A stretch of 64,000 nucleotides of DNA from the NCBI GenBank assembly GCA_030646035.1, contig JAUSMY010000040.1, positions 8,081 to 72,080 on the forward strand, read 5' to 3'. The position numbers were made by a program, and so were the translations under genes. Of this stretch, positions 3,364-51,261 are shown piece by piece. A model generated the notes under the pieces. That model saw only the letters and a program-made list of their open reading frames with translations, ran no database searches and was not told the DNA's origin. Source of the DNA: Thermodesulfovibrionia bacterium. Its GTDB lineage: Bacteria > Nitrospirota > Thermodesulfovibrionia > UBA6902. Position 1 is the stretch's first letter; the number at the start of each line of letters is the position of its first letter.

Positions 3364-3582
3364 ATGACAAAGGAAGAGTCAATAGAGGTACAAGGCACCA
3401 TTCTGAAGAATCTGCCCAATGCGATGTTTAAGGTTGAGCTGGAGAATGGGCAGGAGATACTGGCATATGTTTCAGGGAAGATGCGCATGCATTTTATAAA
3501 GATACTTCCCGGTGACAAGGTAACCGTTGCTCTTTCGCCTTATGACCTTTCTAAAGGCAGAATAACATACAGGTATAAATAG
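3364..3582 (+). CDS. infA: translation initiation factor IF-1
   Basis: 72-aa [57 protein letters not shown]1-like IF-1 fold. Confidence 0.95.
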
Positions 3583-4186: not shown

Positions 4187-4239
4187 TATTCACTGAAACA
4201 ATATCCAGATTGTAATTATATATAAGGATTGGAGGATTA

Positions 4240-4626
4240 ATGGCCCAGAAGAAGCGAGGCGGAAAAAAAGAGAAAAAGGCAGTTCATTCAGGTTCAGTAT
4301 TTATTCAGGCTACTTTTAATAATACAATAGTTACAATAACTGATAAATCAGGCAATGTTGTCGCATGGTCTTCAGCAGGTGCCCATGGTTTTAAAGGTTC
4401 AAGAAAAGGCACGCCATATGCTGCGCAGATCACTGCGGAAAATGCCTCAAAGAAGGCGATGGGATTTGGAATGCGCCAGGTCGATATATTTGTCAAGGGT
4501 CCGGGAGCAGGCAGGGAATCGGCGATAAGGGCCGTGTCTTCAGCCGGACTCGGAGTTAATATAATAAGAGATATTACACCTGTTCCGCATAACGGCACAA
4601 GGCCGCCGAAGAGGAGAAGAGTCTAA
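4240..4626 (+). CDS. rpsK: 30S ribosomal protein S11
   Basis: 128-aa ORF with S11 core ([35 protein letters not shown]); RBS ggagg upstream. Confidence 0.95.
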
Positions 4627-5339: not shown

Positions 5340-6425
5340 ATGGAATTCAAAAAAAGAGGTTTTAACATTCCTGAAAGGGTTGTTTTTGATTCAGGCAGCG
5401 ACCATAAATATGGCAAGCTTATCGCCGAACCATTTGAAAGAGGCTATGGCACTACTGTAGGTAACGCATTAAGAAGGGTTTTGCTTTCTTCTATTGAAGG
5501 GGCAGCGGTTACTTCTGTAAAGATTCCTGGAGTGCTTCATGAGTTTTCCACGCTGCAGGGCCTTAAAGAGGATGTCGTTGATCTCATACTCAACATCAAG
5601 CAGCTCAGATTCAAGATGCATTCAGATGAACCCAAGGTTGTAACTATTGAGATAAGCGGCCCCGGGGAGGTCAAGGGCAGGGATATTATCACTGATGCCG
5701 ATGTCGAGGTTCTTACCCCTGATCAGCATATTGCAACCCTTGACAAGAAGATGAAATTTACTGCTGAACTCAAGATTGAAAAGGGCACCGGCTACAGAGT
5801 GCCTGATGAAGTGCACGGTGAGGATGAAACCGTGGATATGATAAAGGTAGACTCTATATTCACCCCTGTCAGGAAGGTCAACTTTTGGATAGAGGGGGCC
5901 AGGGTTGGCCGTTCAACCGACTTTGATAAGCTTATCATGGAGATATGGACTGACGGCAGTATCACTCCTCAGGAAGCTCTTTCCCAGGCCGCAAATATAC
6001 TAAATGAACATATATCTCTTTTTTCCATGGATGAGGAAGTGAAAAAGGAAGTTATAGATACAGATGCATATGCAGATGATATTGTTCCTGATGAAGAAGA
6101 TGATGATAGTTCGTTTGAGGAGATGGATGAAGAGGAAGAACCGAGTTCACTGAGTGTGTTTAATGACAATCTCCTTAAGAGCGTTGATGAACTTGAGCTT
6201 TCAGTACGTTCAAATAACTGCCTTAAGAATGCAAATATATTTACAATTGCCGACCTTGTACAGAGGACTGAGTCTGAGATGCTCAGGACTAAAAACTTCG
6301 GCAGAAAGTCACTAAACGAGATAAAAGAGGTAGTTTTAAAGATGGGCCTGCACTTTAACATGAGGATTGAACCAGATGTGTTGAAGAAACTGGAGAAGGC
6401 CAGAGGAGTCAAGCATGCGTCATAA
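5340..6425 (+). CDS. rpoA: DNA-directed RNA polymerase alpha subunit with long acidic inter-domain linker
   Basis: 361-aa ORF; N-terminal domain (GYGTTVGNALRRVLLSS) and C-terminal domain (ELSVRSNNCLKNANIFTIADLVQRTESEMLRTKNFGRKSLNEIKE); RBS ggagg. Confidence 0.95.
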   Translation: MEFKKRGFNIPERVVFDSGSDHKYGKLIAEPFERGYGTTVGNALRRVLLSSIEGAAVTSVKIPGVLHEFSTLQGLKEDVVDLILNIKQLRFKMHSDEPKVVTIEISGPGEVKGRDIITDADVEVLTPDQHIATLDKKMKFTAELKIEKGTGYRVPDEVHGEDETVDMIKVDSIFTPVRKVNFWIEGARVGRSTDFDKLIMEIWTDGSITPQEALSQAANILNEHISLFSMDEEVKKEVIDTDAYADDIVPDEEDDDSSFEEMDEEEEPSSLSVFNDNLLKSVDELELSVRSNNCLKNANIFTIADLVQRTESEMLRTKNFGRKSLNEIKEVVLKMGLHFNMRIEPDVLKKLEKARGVKHAS

Positions 6426-6852
6426 AGTAGCCGGCAGAGGATTTGGAAGGAACACAAAGCAGAGGAAAGCACTTTTGAGGGGTTTGGTAATATCACTTTT
6501 AACCCACTTAAAGATAGAGACGACCGTTGCCAAGGCAAAAGAGACAAGGAAGATAGCTGAGAAGATAATCACTCTCGGCAAGAAGGGCGACCTGCATGCA
6601 AGAAGGCTTGCGATGTCATCTATTCCTGATGAGAACTCCATCACCAAACTCTTTAATGAAATAGCACCGAAGATAAGCCGCACCAGCGGTTACCTTAGAG
6701 TGCTGCAGACCCGCAACAGGATAGGCGACAATGCTTCAATGGCTGTGCTTGAGTTTGTTGATTATGAGAAGCTCCAGAACAAAGAGGAGATAGAGCAGAA
6801 GGCAAAGAAGAAAGAGGCAAAGGCTGCGAAAGCAGAGACGACAGAAAAGTAA
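6415..6852 (+). CDS. rplQ: 50S ribosomal protein L17
   Basis: 145-aa ORF MRHKVAGRGFGRNTKQRKALLRGLV...; Lys/Ala-rich C-terminal tail; overlaps rpoA end. Confidence 0.93.
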   Translation: MRHKVAGRGFGRNTKQRKALLRGLVISLLTHLKIETTVAKAKETRKIAEKIITLGKKGDLHARRLAMSSIPDENSITKLFNEIAPKISRTSGYLRVLQTRNRIGDNASMAVLEFVDYEKLQNKEEIEQKAKKKEAKAAKAETTEK

Positions 6853-6876
6853 AGTTTAATTAATATAAATCACCCT

Positions 6877-6907
6877 AAGGCCTGTGAGCGATCACAGGCC
6901 TTTTTTT
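6877..6907 (+). terminator. Rho-independent terminator after rplQ
   Basis: aaggcctgtga (6877-6887) pairs with tcacaggcctt (6892-6901) around loop gcga, followed by T7 run; 25 nt after rplQ stop. Confidence 0.8.
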
Positions 6908-6996
6908 GATTTCAACTTTTGACATAAGGGGCGTACTTTAGTTCATCCTACTTGATGGATGGGTTGGGCGTCGGTTACCCGCGGAACATCATTGCT

Positions 6997-7650
6997 TCAT
7001 TGTGCGATCCACTCGTGAGTGCAGCCAGGGTTCTCCTTGATATTGGGGCTGTTGTATAGCCTGGGTTTAATCCCGAATAATAATGGGTTGGTTCCGTAGT
7101 ACCTCATCTGCGCGTAGGCGGTATCCTTACAAAAATTCTTGTTGCGCACGGTATAGGCCGCGATAACCAATCCCGTGCGGTCCTTCCCATGGCTGCAATG
7201 CACCAAGACCGGCCAATTATTTCCTTTCTCTAATGCTTCTATCGCTTGCTTGAGAATATTTTCATCTGGACTGGCCCATGGGTTTAAGTTATGCGGGAAG
7301 TCTTCCGGTTGCATGTAAAGAGGGATTACATTGATATTATGCTTCTTGGCGAGACGAAGTTCTTCTGACTCGTCTGCATCAGACGAGAATTTGTTCAGCT
7401 TGACCACGGTCTTGATGCCTATCTTCTCCAGATAGCACCAATCTGCATCTCCCTTTGGTTGACCGCTTCGGTAGATTGCACCTACACCATCAGTGCCACC
7501 TGGGATTACGATATGGAAGTTATAGACTGGGGCTGGATGCGGATCCTTTATAGCGATAACAGCTGACGGTTGCGTCAATGTCGCGCATGCTGTCAGGATT
7601 AAGCAAACGCCCAACATTGCAAGACGTATAACAGGATATACATTTCGCAT
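6997..7650 (-). CDS. predicted lipoprotein with protein-tyrosine/dual-specificity phosphatase-like domain
   Basis: 217-aa ORF; signal peptide with lipobox LILTAC; HCSHGKDRTG matches the HCX5R(S/T) P-loop of Cys-based phosphatases (codons at 7171-7200); RBS aaggag upstream; sampled lines about 50% GC. Confidence 0.6.
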   Translation of the reverse strand: MRNVYPVIRLAMLGVCLILTACATLTQPSAVIAIKDPHPAPVYNFHIVIPGGTDGVGAIYRSGQPKGDADWCYLEKIGIKTVVKLNKFSSDADESEELRLAKKHNINVIPLYMQPEDFPHNLNPWASPDENILKQAIEALEKGNNWPVLVHCSHGKDRTGLVIAAYTVRNKNFCKDTAYAQMRYYGTNPLLFGIKPRLYNSPNIKENPGCTHEWIAQ

Positions 7651-7763
7651 AACTACTCCTTGCTTTTGTCAGATTTAGGTATCTCTCTCCGCCCAACGCC
7701 GAGCTAACCTGAGCGACGCTGTTTGCCGCGTCTGGTTGAGCGCCGTGTTAGGTGAATGCTGAA

Positions 7764-8444
7764 TCACTTACGTTTCTTATTTACTAGATATGGCAGTGAA
7801 GTCGCGTGTTCAATAATTCCCTCAACCTCATTCGCTTTGCAGCTATGGGCATCCCAATTGCGCCATTTTGACTGCTTAAGCATGACTGTAAGATTCTTCT
7901 TTTCTTTGATATAGCTGAGCAGCTTCGCTACATGTGCCTCCTCTACCACAAGGGAAAAACAATCCGACATGCTAGGTTTGGTTGAGCCGTGCAACCAAGC
8001 TAGGAGTGTCAAATCATAGGTGCCATCCTTAGTCATCTGGTACTCAAATGGGCGTTCAATCGAAGAAGAAAACTGAACCTGCTTAGTGACATTCTCTCCA
8101 CCAAAGACTGTGATAGGAACTGCCAGTGAGTCACGTATTAATTCCCCGCTCTCTCCAAAGGCAAGGTAATAAGCAGGTTCAAGAAGGTAACCCTCGGGGC
8201 TGCCGCTATGCTGGATCAAGAGGGCAACTCTATCAACGGTGAGATGCTTGGAGCCAGCATTCGCAAAATTCACTGCCAAGATGAACGAGACAGGCCCCTC
8301 CAAGTCGTGGCTGATGGCAGTGTGCTCACCAGCGGTGAGATGGAGTTCGCCCATACGAAATTTTGATACGTATAGACTGATAATTGAGCCGAGCAATGCT
8401 ACTATTGAAATAACAATGGGCACTAGATCCTTCATCTCAATCAT
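7764..8444 (-). CDS. membrane-anchored hypothetical protein
   Basis: 226-aa ORF with one N-terminal TM helix (LVPIVISIVALLGSIISLYV) then soluble domain with no motif I recognise; strong RBS ggaggg upstream. Confidence 0.5.
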   Translation of the reverse strand: MIEMKDLVPIVISIVALLGSIISLYVSKFRMGELHLTAGEHTAISHDLEGPVSFILAVNFANAGSKHLTVDRVALLIQHSGSPEGYLLEPAYYLAFGESGELIRDSLAVPITVFGGENVTKQVQFSSSIERPFEYQMTKDGTYDLTLLAWLHGSTKPSMSDCFSLVVEEAHVAKLLSYIKEKKNLTVMLKQSKWRNWDAHSCKANEVEGIIEHATSLPYLVNKKRK

Positions 8445-8612
8445 GGTATGTCCCTCCAGATTCTATTCATTTGACTTGCTTCCCACATAACGTAAAGCTC
8501 AGTGACGAGTACCACTGCAAGATAACAACAAACCTCCAAACCAATTTGCATACCTCATAACAATGCTACCTCAAAAAGTGTCCTGTGGTACTCGTTCATC
8601 TGCAGCGCATGG

Positions 8613-9389
8613 TTATGCCTCCGCTGGATTGACTTCGTCTCTTGTATAACCAAATCTTTTAGCAAAAAGAATGTCAATATAGTCAGTAAGAAGAAAAAAG
8701 AAACCAAATAATTCATGTGAACTATTAATGTCAATGAAAATCATCTTGTCTTTTTCAAGAATACTTGAAGCATGGACAATTCTGTGACGTACCTGCGCTA
8801 GATCATCTAGAAAATGTAATGGGTTTTTGTGTTTTGTGCCCTCAAACTCCAGTGGAAAACTAGAGTAATGATTAACTATATCGTTTGCTCTATACCCAAT
8901 ATTAAAAACTTCACTCATCTTGCAAAATTTACCATCCCATTTTCGTGACATGAGTATATCCCGAGAAATATCAAATTGATTTTCAGTGATACCAACAGCC
9001 TGAAAAGAACGGTCAAAAAGTTGGTATAAATATGTTTCAAAAGAACCATAAAACATTACCAAGGTCTGTCTCGTCAAAACATTAACTCCATCAACTGTGA
9101 AGTTAAGTAATCGTGCAGCAGGCATAACAACATAATTGCCACTATTAAGTTGAATTTTGATAGGTGTCTTTTCTTTGAATGGTAACTTGGGAATAATCGT
9201 TTCTGCATAACGTTTTTTACATTCATCAAGGGAGAATTTAGTAACATAAAGAAATCCAGTAATTTCATTGAGTCGTCTAAAAAACAATCGTCGCTCTAAC
9301 GTACACTTGGTTTTTGGTAAAACAAAAGTGTCACCTGCATAAGGATCTGGTCCCATATTTAATGGATTTTGAGAATCGTCTGATGTCAT
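8613..9389 (-). CDS. hypothetical protein, strongly AT-rich gene; C-terminal R-x4-H motif (possible HEPN-like)
   Basis: 258-aa ORF, no TM or signal peptide; sampled 60-nt lines give about 25-35% GC; motif RHRIVH at residues 201-206. Confidence 0.5.
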   Translation of the reverse strand: MTSDDSQNPLNMGPDPYAGDTFVLPKTKCTLERRLFFRRLNEITGFLYVTKFSLDECKKRYAETIIPKLPFKEKTPIKIQLNSGNYVVMPAARLLNFTVDGVNVLTRQTLVMFYGSFETYLYQLFDRSFQAVGITENQFDISRDILMSRKWDGKFCKMSEVFNIGYRANDIVNHYSSFPLEFEGTKHKNPLHFLDDLAQVRHRIVHASSILEKDKMIFIDINSSHELFGFFFLLTDYIDILFAKRFGYTRDEVNPAEA

Positions 9390-9556
9390 CTAATTACCTG
9401 AGCATATATGTATCGTTAGAGGCATAATAATTAGTATACTGCCAACCGTATTGCTGGAATATGAATATCATAGTTGTATGGATAAGAAAAGGCAAGCACA
9501 AATGATATACGGCATAAAGAAGTAGCGCAGAAGTTATAACTTAGCGGAACGAGGAA

Positions 9557-10537
9557 CTAAATACTATCTCCGTTAACCGCGCCAATCTTCCTGAACTTGT
9601 CGTATCTCTCTTTGATACGCATCTCCGGGGTTTTTCTGGAGAGTTCATCGATGTGGAGCAATAACGCTCTTTTCATGTTCTCTGCAATCTCTTTGTGGTC
9701 TTTGTGTGCGCCGCCTGTTGGTTCGGGTATTATATCGTCGCAGACCCCGAACTTTTTAAGGTCTTCCGCAGTGATCTTAAGCGCTGCGGATGCCCTTTCA
9801 AAATCTTTCGGCCCGGTCTCGTTAGGCGCTTTCTTCCATAAGATAGCTGCGCATCCTTCAGGAGATATGACAGAATAGATCGAATGTTCAAGCATAAGTA
9901 TCCTGTCTGCAACTGAAAGGGCAAGCGCTCCTCCGCTTCCGCCTTCTCCGATCACAACAGAGATGATAGGGTTTTTCAGTTTGAACATCATATAGAGGTT
10001 CTTGGCAATGGCTTCAGCCTGGCCTCTTTCTTCAGCGCCAAGTCCGGGATAGGCTCCGGGCGTATCAATAAAAGTTATGAGCGGTTTATTGAAACGGTCA
10101 GCGAGCCTCATTATCCTCAGGGCCTTTCTGTACCCTTCAGGGTGGGGCTGGCCGAAGTTTCTTTCGATCCTCTCCCTCGTGGTCTTGCCCTTCTGATGTC
10201 CGATGACTACAACAGGGAAGCCCTCAAACCTTGCGATGCCTGCTACTATTGCCGGGTCGTCAGAGAAGTTCCTGTCGCCGTGAAGCTCGACAAAATCTTC
10301 CATCAGGAGCTTTATATAGTCAAGGGTATGGGGCCTGTCAGAATGCCGGGCTATCTGGGTCTTTTGCCACGGCGTAAGTTTTGAAAAGATATTGATCCTC
10401 AGGTCAGAGGCCTTCTTCTCAAGCTTGCGTATCTCAGATGTTATATTGACGTCCTTGCCGTCAGCTATACGCCTCAGCTCTTCGATCTTATTCTCAAGAT
10501 CTACTACAGGTTTTTCAAATTCAAGATAATTATGCAT
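9557..10537 (-). CDS. accA: acetyl-CoA carboxylase carboxyltransferase alpha subunit
   Basis: 326-aa [28 protein letters not shown]...; carboxyltransferase core ([20 protein letters not shown]). Confidence 0.92.
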
Positions 10538-16275: not shown

Positions 16276-19200
16276 TTAAATGCTCTCTGCGAATTTATTC
16301 AACTCGGATATCTCAGACCTGAGATTGTCAACAAGCTGTGTGAGGCCGGATATATCATTGTTTCGGCCTTTGTGCTCTATTGCCAATGCAAGGGATTGCA
16401 CCCTTGTGGCGCTCAGGTTTCCTGCCGCGCCCTTTATGCTGTGCGCATTCTTCTGCACAGTGTCCGTGTCTCCTGATGCCACGGCGTCCTCGATCGCCTT
16501 GATCTTATCCGGTACATAAGAAAGAAATTCATTCAACAGCTCTTTATAAAAGTCTTTGTCATCATCGAACCTGGCCATCGCGCTCTTTATGTCTACAGGT
16601 GTATCTGATTCAGGTTTGGCTCCGGATTCAGTAATGTCGTCAGTCGTTTTTGTTGCTATCGGTTTTGGGATGACTATTTTGGATCTTACCCACTTGGAGA
16701 TCTTCTCCAGCATCTCCTGAGGCTCAATAGGTTTTGACAGGTAGTCGTCCATCCCGGCTTCGATGCAGCGCTCAAAGTCGCCTTTCAGCGCATGTGCTGT
16801 CATTGCGATTATTGTTGTGTGCATGCCATTGTTCTCTCTTAAGCGGATCTCATTTGTGGCTTTGATGCCGTCCATCTCCGGCATCTGTATATCCATTAAA
16901 ACAATATCGTACTTTTTCTTATCCAGCGCTTCAAGCGCCAGCCTGCCGTTCTCAACAATATCAACCTGATACCCTGCTTTTGTCAGTATTTTCTGAGCCA
17001 CTTTCTGGTTGACCGGATTATCTTCAGCAAGCAGTATATTTACGCTCTGGTACTTTGTGTCCCTCAATGTGTGGCTTGTCACGATCTTATGTCTATGGGT
17101 CGATCTATCCTTTTCGTTTCCGCTGAGCACAGTGACAATTGTTTCTAAAAGCAGAGATTCCTTAACAGGCTTTATGAGATAGCCTGAACAACCTATATTC
17201 CGTATGTCGGCAACATCTCCCCGGCTCCCCAGAGATGTAAGAATAATTATCTCCGTGTCCTTGATCTCAGGCGTGTTCTTAACAATGACAGTGGTATGCT
17301 CACCGTCCATTCCAGGCATCTGCATGTCAAGCAGCATGACCTTGAACGGGTCTTTAGCTGCAGCAGCTTTCTTGAGTTCCCTGATAGCTGCAACTCCGCT
17401 GTCAACTGATACCGGCCTGCAGCCATAGTTCTCCAGTGTCTTCTCAAGTATCAGCCTATTGGTCTTGTTATCGTCGGTTATAAGCACTCTCATGCCTTTT
17501 AATTCCGGCGTTGTCTTATCAACAGGTATCGGCTGAATATCTTTCTGTTTCTTTATCGGCAGATTGAACCAGAACCTGCTCCCTTTGCCCGGTGTGGTAT
17601 CAACGCCTATCTCTCCGTTCATGAGTTCAACTAATTTTTTTGATATAGACAGGCCCAGCCCGGTTCCTCCATAGATGCGTGTTGTGGAGCCGTCTGCCTG
17701 TGAAAACTCATCAAAGATCATATCCAGCTTGTCTTCAGGCAGCCCTATCCCGGTGTCTGAAACAGAGAAGAGGATATTTTCCACATCATCGTCCTCTTCC
17801 AGAAGTTCGGCCCTTATTACCACTTCCCCTTTATGAGTGAACTTGATAGCGTTGTTGCCCAGGTTCAGCAGTATTTGGCGTATCCTGGCAGGGTCGCCTA
17901 TCAGCAGTGAACTCACTTCATGATGGATCATGCATGCGAGTTCGAGATTCTTTTCAGATGCCTGGAAGGCGAGGGTCTCGGCAACCCCTTCTACTGTAAG
18001 CCTCAGGTTGAAATCTATATGCTCTATAGGCATCTTCCCTGACTCGATCTTTGAAAAGTCCAGGATGTCATTTATTATGTTCAGAAGGGAATAAGCGCTC
18101 TTTTTAACAATTGAAAGGAAATCATACTGTTCATCCGTAAGCTCGGTATCCAGCGCCAGCGAGGTCATCCCCACAATAGCGTTCATCGGTGTGCGTATCT
18201 CATGGCTCATGTTTGCAAGGAACTCGGACTTGATCTTGTTTGCTTCTTCAGCCTTGATACGCTCTGATACAAGATCCTTGTGGGTACCCTCAAGGATGAA
18301 CATCATGTTGTTGAAGGTCTCGGTTGTTTCATAAAGCGCATCTGCTGTGGACATCTTGTAAACGTCACACTGCTCACACCTGCCGTATTTCTGTGCGAAT
18401 TGTCCCTGCACTTGTCCCCCGCAGTGTGTGCCTGCAAGCTGCCAGCATCTCACATTATGTTTTCCATAAGCAGGGCAGTCTTCTTTTCCGCACTTTTTAA
18501 ATTCCCAGCAGGTGGGGATGTAGGGATTATGAACAGGTTTGTATTCATGATTAGTGAAACCTTTTTTTGCCTCAACCTCGTTAATGATCTGCGAGAAGGT
18601 TTCAAGTGCATGGTGAAGGTTTTTTCTGTCTGTCTCAAGCTTCTCGCGTGTATCCATAAGCAGGGCTTCCACTGATTTGCGGTCAGTGATATCCTTGGCT
18701 ATTATTATTATGTCGGTGATATCGCCGTGGTCATCTTTCAGCACAGAGCCTGACAGGATGGATGGTATTGAGTCATGGCCCTTTGTCTCGCATGAGGTCT
18801 CATATCCCCTGACAATGCCTGCATCAAGGAGCATGCCGAAGAAATCAGCCTGGTCTGTCTCTCTTCCGGCCTTACCGCACAGCATGCCGAATTCACTGCC
18901 TATCAATTCATCTTTGCTGTAGCCGAGGAGGTTCACCGCTGCATTGTTAACGTTCTTGATCCTGCCTTTAGAATCCAGTATGACCATGATGTCAGCAATA
19001 GACTCCAGGATCTCGTCGAGGTGGCTTTTTGAGACCAAGACTTCAGAAAGCTTCTGGGTCATCTTATTAAATGCGAGGCCGAGTTGGCCGATCTCATCAT
19101 CTGAGGCTACATCAACCTTTTGGCTGAGGTTCCCGTCAGCAACAGATTGGAAAACAGTAACAAGGTTCTTCACCGGCCTGGATAGCGCTTTTTGCAGGAG

Positions 19201-49941: not shown

Positions 49942-51261
49942 GTGGTTGATGTTATGTTAGTGATTATATTAATTCTGGTTCTTGTTGCTGTTGGTCAGCT
50001 TACAATGATTCTGAATCGAAGTTCAAAAATTGATTTATCTCAGCTTGAATCCCATATTGCTTCCTTTGAGAGGAACCAGGAAAGGACCGAAAGGGCATTA
50101 AGAGAAGAGGTCGCTCTAAATAGAGAAGAAACGTCAAAGAGTTCAAGAAATCTCAGGGAAGAAATGGTCAACAGTATGACAAAAATATCCAATGTTCAGC
50201 AAGAGCAGTTTGATAGTTTTTCAAAAAAACTCGATACATTGACACAAAGTAATGAGCAGAAGCTAGATAAAATGAGAGAAACTGTTGAAGGCAGGCTGAA
50301 ACTTCTTCAGGATGATAACACAAAGAAACTAGACCAAATGAGAGAAACTGTTGATGAAAAACTCCATGCTACTCTTGAAAAACGATTAGGGGAATCTTTT
50401 AAGCATGTGAGCGACAGGCTTGAAAAAGTTCATCAGGGACTTGGTGAGATGCAAACATTGGCTGCCGGAGTAGGAGACCTTAAGAAAGTTCTGACAAATG
50501 TGAAAACAAGAGGGACTTGGGGTGAAATTCAGCTTGGTGCTCTATTGGAACAAGTATTATCCGGTGAACAATATGAAAAAAACGTCGTCACAAAAAAAGG
50601 AAGTAATGACAGAGTTGAATTTGCTATTAAGCTGCCCGGGCATGATGATAAAGATGACCAGCCGGTTTGGTTGCCTATTGATGCAAAATTTCCTCGTGAA
50701 GACTATGAAAGACTTGTTGAAGCACAGGAGAAGGCTGATGCCGGGCTTGCAGAAGATGCAGCAAAACAACTGGAGGTCAGGATTAAATCAAGTGCTAAAG
50801 AGATTAAAGATAAATACCTTGATCCTCCTCATACTACAGATTTTGGCATTATGTTTTTGCCGACAGAGGGCTTGTTTGCTGAGGTTATAAAAAGACCAGG
50901 TCTTTCCGATTTTTTACAGAGAGAATACCGGATATCAGTTACCGGCCCCACAACTTTAGCCGCTTTATTGAACAGCCTTCAAATGGGGTTTAGGACACTT
51001 ACTATTGAAAAGCGTTCAAGTGAAGTTTGGTCTTTGCTTGGAGCTGTAAAAACAGAATTTGGGAAGTTCGGCACTATTCTTGATAAAACCCAGAAAAAAC
51101 TTCAAGAAGCCAGCAATACAATAGAAGATGCTGCAAAAAAATCTCGCACTATTGAGAGAAAATTAAAAAATGTACAGGAACTTCCTTCGCAAGAACCTTC
51201 ATTAATCACTGATGAAATATCAGATAATGATGAAGCCGAAAATGATGGGGTAATTACATAG
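49942..51261 (+). CDS. rmuC: DNA recombination protein RmuC
   Basis: 439-aa ORF; N-terminal TM helix, long coiled coil, C-terminal RmuC domain. Confidence 0.8.
   Translation: MVDVMLVIILILVLVAVGQLTMILNRSSKIDLSQLESHIASFERNQERTERALREEVALNREETSKSSRNLREEMVNSMTKISNVQQEQFDSFSKKLDTLTQSNEQKLDKMRETVEGRLKLLQDDNTKKLDQMRETVDEKLHATLEKRLGESFKHVSDRLEKVHQGLGEMQTLAAGVGDLKKVLTNVKTRGTWGEIQLGALLEQVLSGEQYEKNVVTKKGSNDRVEFAIKLPGHDDKDDQPVWLPIDAKFPREDYERLVEAQEKADAGLAEDAAKQLEVRIKSSAKEIKDKYLDPPHTTDFGIMFLPTEGLFAEVIKRPGLSDFLQREYRISVTGPTTLAALLNSLQMGFRTLTIEKRSSEVWSLLGAVKTEFGKFGTILDKTQKKLQEASNTIEDAAKKSRTIERKLKNVQELPSQEPSLITDEISDNDEAENDGVIT

Follow-up and report, generated by a model that had tools for sequence, protein, structure and literature searches.

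A predicted array of three integron cassettes without an integrase at the rplQ/accA junction of a Thermodesulfovibrionia genome

The 64,000-nt stretch of Thermodesulfovibrionia bacterium contig JAUSMY010000040.1 analyzed here (assembly GCA_030646035.1, positions 8,081 to 72,080; hereafter the window) carries three minus-strand genes, designated A, B, and C, at the convergent junction of the plus-strand genes rpsK-rpsD-rpoA-rplQ with the minus-strand pair dnaE-accA. A preliminary description of this DNA, drawn from the sequence alone, had regarded them as a three-gene islet of unknown function and possibly a defense unit. Our analysis indicates with high confidence that the locus is an integron array of three cassettes without an integrase (a CALIN, in which clustered attC sites have no integrase), running in the order C-B-A on the minus strand. 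As read from the sequence, each cassette consists of a single promoterless open reading frame (ORF) followed by its own attC site, arranged R''-spacer-L''...L'-spacer-R' (Table 1). The gene set of the preliminary description stood. The three ORFs between rplQ and accA encode 217, 226, and 258 residues, and each is preceded by its own Shine-Dalgarno sequence (AGGT, GGAGG, and AGGAG). The lipoprotein with a phosphatase motif is A (lipobox LTAC, P-loop HCSHGKDRTG), and the single-transmembrane (TM) protein is B, with one N-terminal TM helix at residues 4-28 of its AlphaFold2 (AF2) model.

The sites were recognized in the sequences 3' of the stop codons of C homologs, many of which start with TAAC and continue into an imperfect palindrome ending in a GTTAGGC-like core. 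A pattern scan found a textbook attC in 25 of 63 nonredundant regions downstream of C homologs. In this family the final Ala codon and the TAA stop are overlapped by the R'' box of the attC, GC[A/T]TAAC, and the conserved C-terminus, ending in PAEA and the stop, shares bases with the site. Examples of the overlap are found at L129:922-983, L161:513-570, and L164:1013-1075 and, in the window, at 8612-8618. A scan by regular expression and stem alone was unspecific, giving 32 matches in the window, and covariance models were used instead. The first model, R1, drew on 11 attC-like sites adjacent to homologs in other metagenomes and contained nothing from the window. When both strands of the entire window were searched with it, filters off, only two matches in the 64 kb were significant, attC_B (45.1 bits, E value of 1.2e-8) and attC_C (25.1 bits, E value of 9e-4), which sit exactly in the spacers following B and C. 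The second model, R2, built from 103 external R1 matches, scored the same two sites at 43.2 bits (E value of 3.1e-9, the best in the window) and 31.3 bits (E value of 4.8e-6), respectively. Both sites have the attC architecture (consensus R'' RYYYAAC and R' GTTRRRY), with spacers, pairing between the R boxes and between the L boxes, and an L'' that carries an extrahelical base. The R boxes of attC_C paired at 7/7 positions in the pattern scan, and the architecture of attC_B is near-identical to that of the attC after the B homolog in locus L005. The two sites thus lie on the same strand within ~4 kb, and at least two such sites within that distance define a CALIN. The statement of the preliminary description that no mobility signature is present was in effect mistaken: the signature lies in the spacers, as attC sites.

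A third site, attC_A, follows gene A as a degenerate terminal site. In the window it ranked fourth with R2, at 10.5 bits (E value of 1.8), and aligned over its full length on the expected strand and in the expected spacer; the pattern scan recovered it on the bottom strand with R-box pairing at 6/7 positions. The chance of an R2 match in that 144-nt spacer and strand was about 1%, given nine matches with an E value of ≤10 in 128 kb.

The specificity of R1 was examined on the loci of A, B, and C homologs (446 kb), where it gave 103 matches. Of these, 100 fell on the strand of the genes and formed arrays (for example, 10 in L128, 13 in L114, and 7 in L099). In the negative control, 1.145 Mb of Nitrospirota accA loci yielded 5 matches at an E value of ≤0.5. 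Homologs of all three genes were found next to attC sites. The A homolog in L174, a Sulfuricella metagenome-assembled genome (MAG), lies between sites at 3449-3511 and 4205-4264 in a six-site array; the B homolog in L005 lies between sites at 5904-5960 and 6742-6804; the B homolog in L003 has a site directly 3' of it (5396-5458); and the C homolog in L009 lies between sites at 5365-5455 and 6823-6947. The L009 array holds a cyclic-oligonucleotide-based antiphage signaling system (CBASS), the C homolog, and an Mrr-type endonuclease; the integron integrase gene divergent from it carries a frameshift and scored 288 bits for TIGR02249 (cutoff, 265). IntI homologs also flank the arrays in L106 and L133. 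Two of these loci may be noted for their own layout. On the metagenome contig L128 (3-4944), which holds a C homolog, ten closely alike attC sites of 76 nt are spaced about 440-880 nt apart in a dense array that resembles a sedentary chromosomal integron, and L005:5356-7293 is a three-cassette CALIN that holds the B homolog on a high-GC proteobacterial contig, with housekeeping genes on its two sides (a glycosyl hydrolase family 3 gene and acpS/pdxJ).

Table 1. Coordinates of the predicted cassettes, their genes and attC sites, and the chromosomal flanks (positions in the window)
Feature	Position	Strand	Length	Description
rplQ	6415-6852	+		rpsK-rpsD-rpoA-rplQ block
rplQ intrinsic terminator	6877-6902	+		11-bp stem plus T-run, fold z -3.0; native; right-hand chromosomal flank of the array
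attC_A	6910-6969	-	60 nt	degenerate, terminal; R'' GCCCAAC, spacer CCATC, L'' CATCAAGTAGG, loop, L' CCCCTTATGT, spacer CAAAA, R' GTTGAAA
Cassette A	6916-7696	-		starts TTGGGC; own R'' GCCCAAC
Gene A	6997-7650	-	217 aa	predicted lipoprotein phosphatase, PTP/DSP superfamily; P-loop HCSHGKDRTG
attC_B	7691-7753	-	63 nt	R'' ACCTAAC, spacer ACGGC, L'' GCT[C]AACC, loop, L' GGTTAGC, spacer TCGGC, R' GTTGGGC
Cassette B	7697-8490	-		between G/TT of attC_C and G/TT of attC_B
Gene B	7764-8444	-	226 aa	N-terminal TM helix, beta-sandwich, C-terminal helical region with QSKWRxWxAH; no Pfam family
attC_C	8485-8618	-	134 nt	R'' GCATAAC over TAA stop, spacer CATGC, L'' GCT[G]CAG[A]TG plus 11-bp stem, 69-nt loop, L' CACTGAGC, spacer TTTAC, R' GTTATGT
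Cassette C	8491-9427	-		TTATGC to G of R' box; single ORF; G/TT crossover rule
Gene C	8613-9389	-	258 aa	solo HEPN protein, RiboL-PSP type; R201-x4-H206 (RHRIVH) invariant; GC 0.341
Leader, accA stop to inferred start of cassette C	9428-9556	-	129 nt	outside any cassette; weak sigma-70-like site at 9495-9467; no terminator
accA	9557-10537	-		dnaE-accA block

Integron recombination crosses over between the G and the TT of the core site, so the 5' TTRRRY of a cassette should complement the R'' box of its own attC better than the R' box downstream. This was the case in 44 external consecutive site pairs, where the R'' box of a site fitted the preceding R' box at 3.05 of 4 positions and its own R' box at 2.07 (Wilcoxon p of 6.6e-5). 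In the window, the R'' boxes of the three cassettes matched their own cassette starts at 4/4, 3/4, and 4/4 positions and the downstream R' boxes at 1, 2, and 3. The R'' box of attC_A, GCCCAAC, is complementary at 7/7 positions to the GTTGGGC at the start of cassette A, compared with 4/7 for its own R' box, GTTGAAA. At the other end of the array, TTATGC, the complement of the CATAA core of the attC_C R'' box, occurs at 9427-9422 and again at 9517-9512. The left end was put at 9427 because the TTATGC there lies about 32 nt before the ATG, and the corresponding gap from the upstream attC to the C start is about 10-40 nt in other arrays. The longer heptamer TTATGCC also stands twice in the leader between accA and C (9427-9421 and 9517-9511, 90 nt apart), both copies being complementary to the attC_C R'' box.

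From this layout a history of the array may be proposed. The cassettes would have been inserted singly, by an integron integrase that acted in trans or has since been lost. As new cassettes would enter at the upstream junction, A would be the first and oldest arrival and C, next to accA, the last and newest. In line with this order, C is the sole gene that is still compositionally foreign, its low GC being partly a trait of its family. The right-hand R' box, GTTGAAA, may be a hybrid with the chromosomal target, left by insertion at a secondary (attG-type) site; it pairs poorly with its R'' box, as expected if TTGAAA is chromosomal. The insertion of cassettes at secondary attG-type sites has been shown experimentally (Loot et al., bioRxiv 10.1101/2022.09.11.507474). 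Expression of the cassettes would probably depend on read-through from dnaE-accA, proposed because no terminator follows accA, or on the weak promoter-like site predicted in the leader.

To compare the junction in relatives, one genome per species was scanned with accA, giving 80 Nitrospirota loci. Relatives of A, B, or C were encoded in none of the 80. The convergent rplQ/accA arrangement was kept in 11 of them, with gaps of 101, 221, 638, 706, 763, 830, 2211, 2438, 3645, 4567, and 7694 bp; the gap in the window is 2704 bp. The cargo of the junction was different in every genome, including two-component genes with a DUF6922-AbiEii pair, LemA with a beta-CASP RNase, an M6 peptidase, and others. 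The nearest homologs of A, B, and C were found in Proteobacteria, Planctomycetota, Desulfobulbaceae, and Bacteroidia. The absence of the three genes from the 80 loci together with the varying cargo indicates that the genes are accessory and the junction a variable spot, and on this sequence comparison the three genes are acquired. The view of a small acquired accessory islet thus gained support, the genes proving not to be shared across the lineage at the rplQ-accA position. At the locus, a search turned up no direct or inverted repeats flanking the genes, no tRNA target, and no Rfam family. The closest relative, L011 (accA 86% identical), has 7.7 kb of other cargo in its rplQ/accA junction, and this cargo includes (16721-17582) a DUF6922 and AbiEii nucleotidyltransferase pair of the type IV toxin-antitoxin/abortive infection (Abi) kind, two-component signaling genes, a DMT_6 transporter, and a PilZ protein.

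Base composition set C apart from the other two genes. C is strongly AT-rich, with a GC content of 0.341 (z of -3.5) and a GC at third codon positions (GC3) of 0.248 (z of -3.4), the lowest among the 53 ORFs of the window. A (0.478) and B (0.463) do not deviate from the window gene mean of 0.449 +/- 0.031. Homologs of C were more AT-rich than their own flanks in 46 of 49 loci (by a mean of 8.7 points), suggesting that the low GC is in part a family trait. The second most AT-rich ORF of the window is of the RmuC family (49942-51261, plus strand; GC 0.389, GC3 0.298), with no attC match nearby. The folding energies of the three intergenic spacers were unremarkable against shuffled sequence (z of -0.23 for the leader, -0.35, and -1.07); only the rplQ-proximal end reached a z of -3.0, which corresponds to the rplQ terminator. 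The heterogeneous GC of the preliminary description is accordingly real for C, and the 48-60% given there for the phosphatase gene was overstated. Its spacer hairpins are not apparent as bulk folding energy, and the imperfect palindromes are real, being the attC sites.

The host-like GC of A and B and the ordinary spacer folding are what would be seen if these were genes native to the lineage, with repetitive extragenic palindrome-like or terminator palindromes in their spacers and no mobile origin. We give this explanation next to no credence, since the genes are missing from all 80 related accA loci and have their nearest homologs in other phyla, the palindromes fit the attC covariance model (E values of 3e-9 and 5e-6) with conserved AAC and GTT cores, and the C homologs are AT-rich relative to their flanks elsewhere. 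The junction comparison and the covariance models together refute it.

A search of the window with the IntI of L009 by tblastn found no IntI-like sequence, with nothing better than an E value of 0.75, and the nearest tRNA lies about 31 kb from the islet; on both counts the preliminary description, which had seen no integrase and no tRNA target, was correct for the window. The array might nevertheless be part of a complete, active integron with its integrase outside the window or elsewhere in the genome or, in a variant of this idea, the remnant of an old accA-adjacent platform that lost intI. Cury et al. (2016, PMC4889954) found IntI encoded on the same replicon for around half of CALINs, and in L020 (Bacterium BMS3Bbin09, a distant member of the Nitrospirota) a truncated integron-integrase ORF (6593-7356, minus strand) directly follows accA (5526-6512). 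However, IntI-like sequence is absent over 7 kb on one side of the array and 54 kb on the other, just 129 nt separate accA from cassette C, no attC was detected beside the L020 remnant, and L020 is so distant (accA 68-69% identical) that the common position may be coincidence. We regard a complete integron, or a platform that lost its integrase, as a real but lesser possibility.

Several points weigh against the assignment of the locus as a three-cassette CALIN. The terminal site attC_A is not significant alone and conforms only partly to the attC architecture. The left boundary of the array is ambiguous, 9427 being preferred over 9517. The empty insertion site is not reconstructable from the relatives, as nucleotide similarity ends within accA and rplQ. 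The absence of an integrase applies to the 64-kb window, taken from a contig of about 121 kb, which extends about 7 kb to one side of the array and 54 kb to the other. The attC calls were made with a custom covariance model and not with the curated model of IntegronFinder, and the seed sites were chosen by a pattern that encodes the attC consensus, leaving a concern of circularity that is not fully removed. The strand bias of the matches, their occurrence in arrays, the associated integrases, and the negative control argue against such circularity.

The assignment of the locus as a CALIN also bears on whether the three genes form a system. Homolog contexts comprised L001, L003, L005, L170, and L173 for B, L007, L009, and 79 metagenome loci for C, and L174 for A. 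Across the 175 loci fetched (1.64 Mb), 83 had C only, 10 had B only, and 2 had A only, and no two of the three families occurred together. Conserved upstream or downstream partners of C were absent from 81 loci, apart from same-genome duplicates. B homologs had unrelated neighbors, the upstream genes in L003 and in L005/L006 being related neither to one another nor to C. In about 13 of 32 contexts the gene following C encoded a membrane or secreted protein, which was not clearly over background, and the idea of such a tendency was dropped. These distributions, and the attC site that separates each gene from the next, speak against a dedicated antiphage system of three genes, or of a HEPN protein and a membrane effector, acquired as a unit. 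Such a system could be suspected from the co-orientation and close spacing of A, B, and C, from the HEPN nature of C, and from the CBASS, Mrr-type, type I restriction, and AbiU genes that adjoin some C homologs. With no significant match in PADLOC either, it is already largely refuted and in our view highly improbable. The three-gene islet or defense unit of the preliminary description is thus not supported, and the genes are better described as independent single-gene cassettes.

The product of C is most likely a dimeric, metal-independent HEPN RNase and possibly a single-protein abortive infection or toxin gene, as predicted from knowledge of the family. Its Rx4-6H motif, R201-H-R-I-V-H206, was invariant across 33 sequences, and the protein has the all-alpha HEPN fold. 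C itself scored 22.1 bits against PF18735 (HEPN_RiboL-PSP), below the Pfam gathering threshold of 28.4, and all 33 aligned relatives matched PF18735 at an E value of ≤0.01 (best, 2.9e-8). Many relatives at 52-69% identity carry a precomputed PF18735 domain, and the family comprises more than 215 clusters at 90% identity. Linkage to an endoribonuclease L-PSP domain or ParB, by fusion or operon, is the naming feature of the RiboL-PSP-HEPN family; neither was among the neighbor families listed, and C is solo and unfused, in a single-gene cassette. A second ORF, which could encode an antitoxin, would not fit in the cassette, and no conserved neighbor could take that role. Conservation upstream of C extends only about 20-40 nt, and Rfam gave no match of any kind in 6500-10000 at an E value of ≤1, an abiF-type RNA included. 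In the scan of the three proteins against PADLOC-DB 2.0, A and B had no matches and C a single nonsignificant one (PDC-M15A, E value of 0.037), in line with the earlier statement that none could be placed in a nameable defense family. Relatives of C and of B were absent from the IMG/VR viral contigs.

Around C homologs there are, among others, genes for Mrr (4 cases), type I restriction enzymes, CBASS, AbiU, and TIR, a set that fits both defense islands and cassette arrays. The RiboL-PSP-HEPN family is distantly related to AbiD/AbiF (Anantharaman et al. 2013, PMC3710099), and at least one-third of the screened mobile-integron cassettes of unknown function give phage resistance, including one of the AbiV family (Kieffer et al., bioRxiv 10.1101/2024.07.02.601719). 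Among the three genes, only C has a plausible role in defense or toxicity.

B was modeled by AF2 (pLDDT of 79.9) as the TM helix followed by a nine-strand beta-sandwich and a C-terminal helical part with the conserved QSKWRxWxAH. The fold matches were generic Ig-like domains, and no family could be assigned from Pfam, NCBIfam, PHROGs, or PADLOC. A profile search recovered 359 representatives at 50% identity, mostly of 200-245 residues, and none of the nine genuine members scanned contained a Pfam domain. On this model B would be a beta-sandwich protein tethered to the membrane; its family is undescribed. Lys and Arg residues are more numerous after the TM helix than before it, faintly hinting that the domain may be cytoplasmic. 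A PIN_12 protein and a GNAT acetyltransferase are encoded as well in arrays with B homologs (L003:2914-4002 and L170:902-1393); both domain types figure in the phage-resistance cassettes of integrons that Kieffer et al. reported (bioRxiv 10.1101/2024.07.02.601719).

A matched the Pfam families Y_phosphatase2 (PF03162, 53 bits against a cutoff of 27) and Y_phosphatase3 (PF13350, 44.8 bits against 22.2), as well as DSPc over its cutoff, and its P-loop was invariant among homologs. By inspection of the sequence, a lipobox of the pattern [LVI][ASTVI][GAS]C lies at residues 19-22 after a positively charged n-region and a hydrophobic core, and it is kept in most homologs. Beyond Pfam, the scans of the three proteins against NCBIfam, PHROGs, and PADLOC returned nothing useful. 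Relatives of A in the PDB are PFA-DSP1, Siw14, and the periplasmic TpbA (25-35 bits). By analogy with TpbA and the PFA-DSPs, A is predicted to be a periplasm-facing lipoprotein phosphatase. Cassette proteins are enriched in signal peptides (Ghaly et al. 2023, PMC10661359), which fits A and B.

The locus can be placed among known elements. It resembles the CALINs of Cury et al. (2016, PMC4889954) and IntegronFinder 2.0 (PMC9024848) in having at least two co-oriented attC sites within 4 kb, one promoterless ORF per cassette, and no intI nearby, and also in being a small array with cargo mostly of unknown function and no resistance genes. It differs from them in the custom covariance model used for its detection, its decayed terminal attC, its host, a Thermodesulfovibrionia MAG, and its rplQ/accA position. 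With the attG insertions and single attC sites lacking an integrase (SALINs) described by Loot et al. (bioRxiv 10.1101/2022.09.11.507474) it shares an ordinary intergenic site with no attI or intI, a last R' box that looks hybrid (GTTGAAA), and the lack of flanking repeats. It has three cassettes rather than one, and a GWT target was not demonstrated, as the empty site is not reconstructable. Elements of this kind are known; this one lies in a Nitrospirota genome, and it reveals no new mechanism.

The cargo has similar but inexact precedents. Like the phage-resistance integron cassettes (BRiCs) that include brcN, an AbiV gene (Kieffer et al., bioRxiv 10.1101/2024.07.02.601719), C is a single-gene HEPN-fold cassette without an antitoxin, AbiV being a HEPN protein according to PDB 9bj5, and arrays with C or B homologs likewise hold CBASS, Mrr, PIN_12, and GNAT cassettes. 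C differs in its assignment to the RiboL-PSP HEPN family and not to AbiV. With AbiD/AbiF (Abi_2), C has in common a solo HEPN domain with Rx4H and a predicted RNase activity, and it differs in having no abiF-type RNA motif detected upstream, no PADLOC Abi match, and a family-specific N-terminal region. A shares with TpbA of P. aeruginosa (PDB 4r0s) and with PFA-DSP/Siw14 the HCxxGKxRTG P-loop, its size (217 versus 218 residues), and, as predicted, export. The similarity amounts to 25-35 bits only, A is a predicted lipoprotein whereas TpbA is soluble in the periplasm, and no TpbB/YfiN-like partner is encoded nearby.

A more far-reaching idea about the cargo, which we offer as speculation and think rather unlikely to hold in full, is that C is a self-contained, antitoxin-less, single-protein Abi RNase, spread by integrons over at least four or five phyla with its R'' box built into the stop codon, and that B may represent a new membrane-tethered cassette family acting in phage exclusion or envelope interactions. 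If this were true, the window would offer two candidate new integron-borne defense genes.

The analysis turns an islet of unknown function into a member of a defined class of mobile element, with exact cassette boundaries, whose cassette families are common to Nitrospirota, Proteobacteria, Planctomycetota, Desulfobulbaceae, and Bacteroidia. It also flags two widespread uncharacterized families, the solo HEPN proteins (C) and the proteins with a TM helix and beta-sandwich (B), for functional screens. Such screens appear worthwhile, given the recent finding that integron cassettes without a known function frequently turn out to be phage defense genes.

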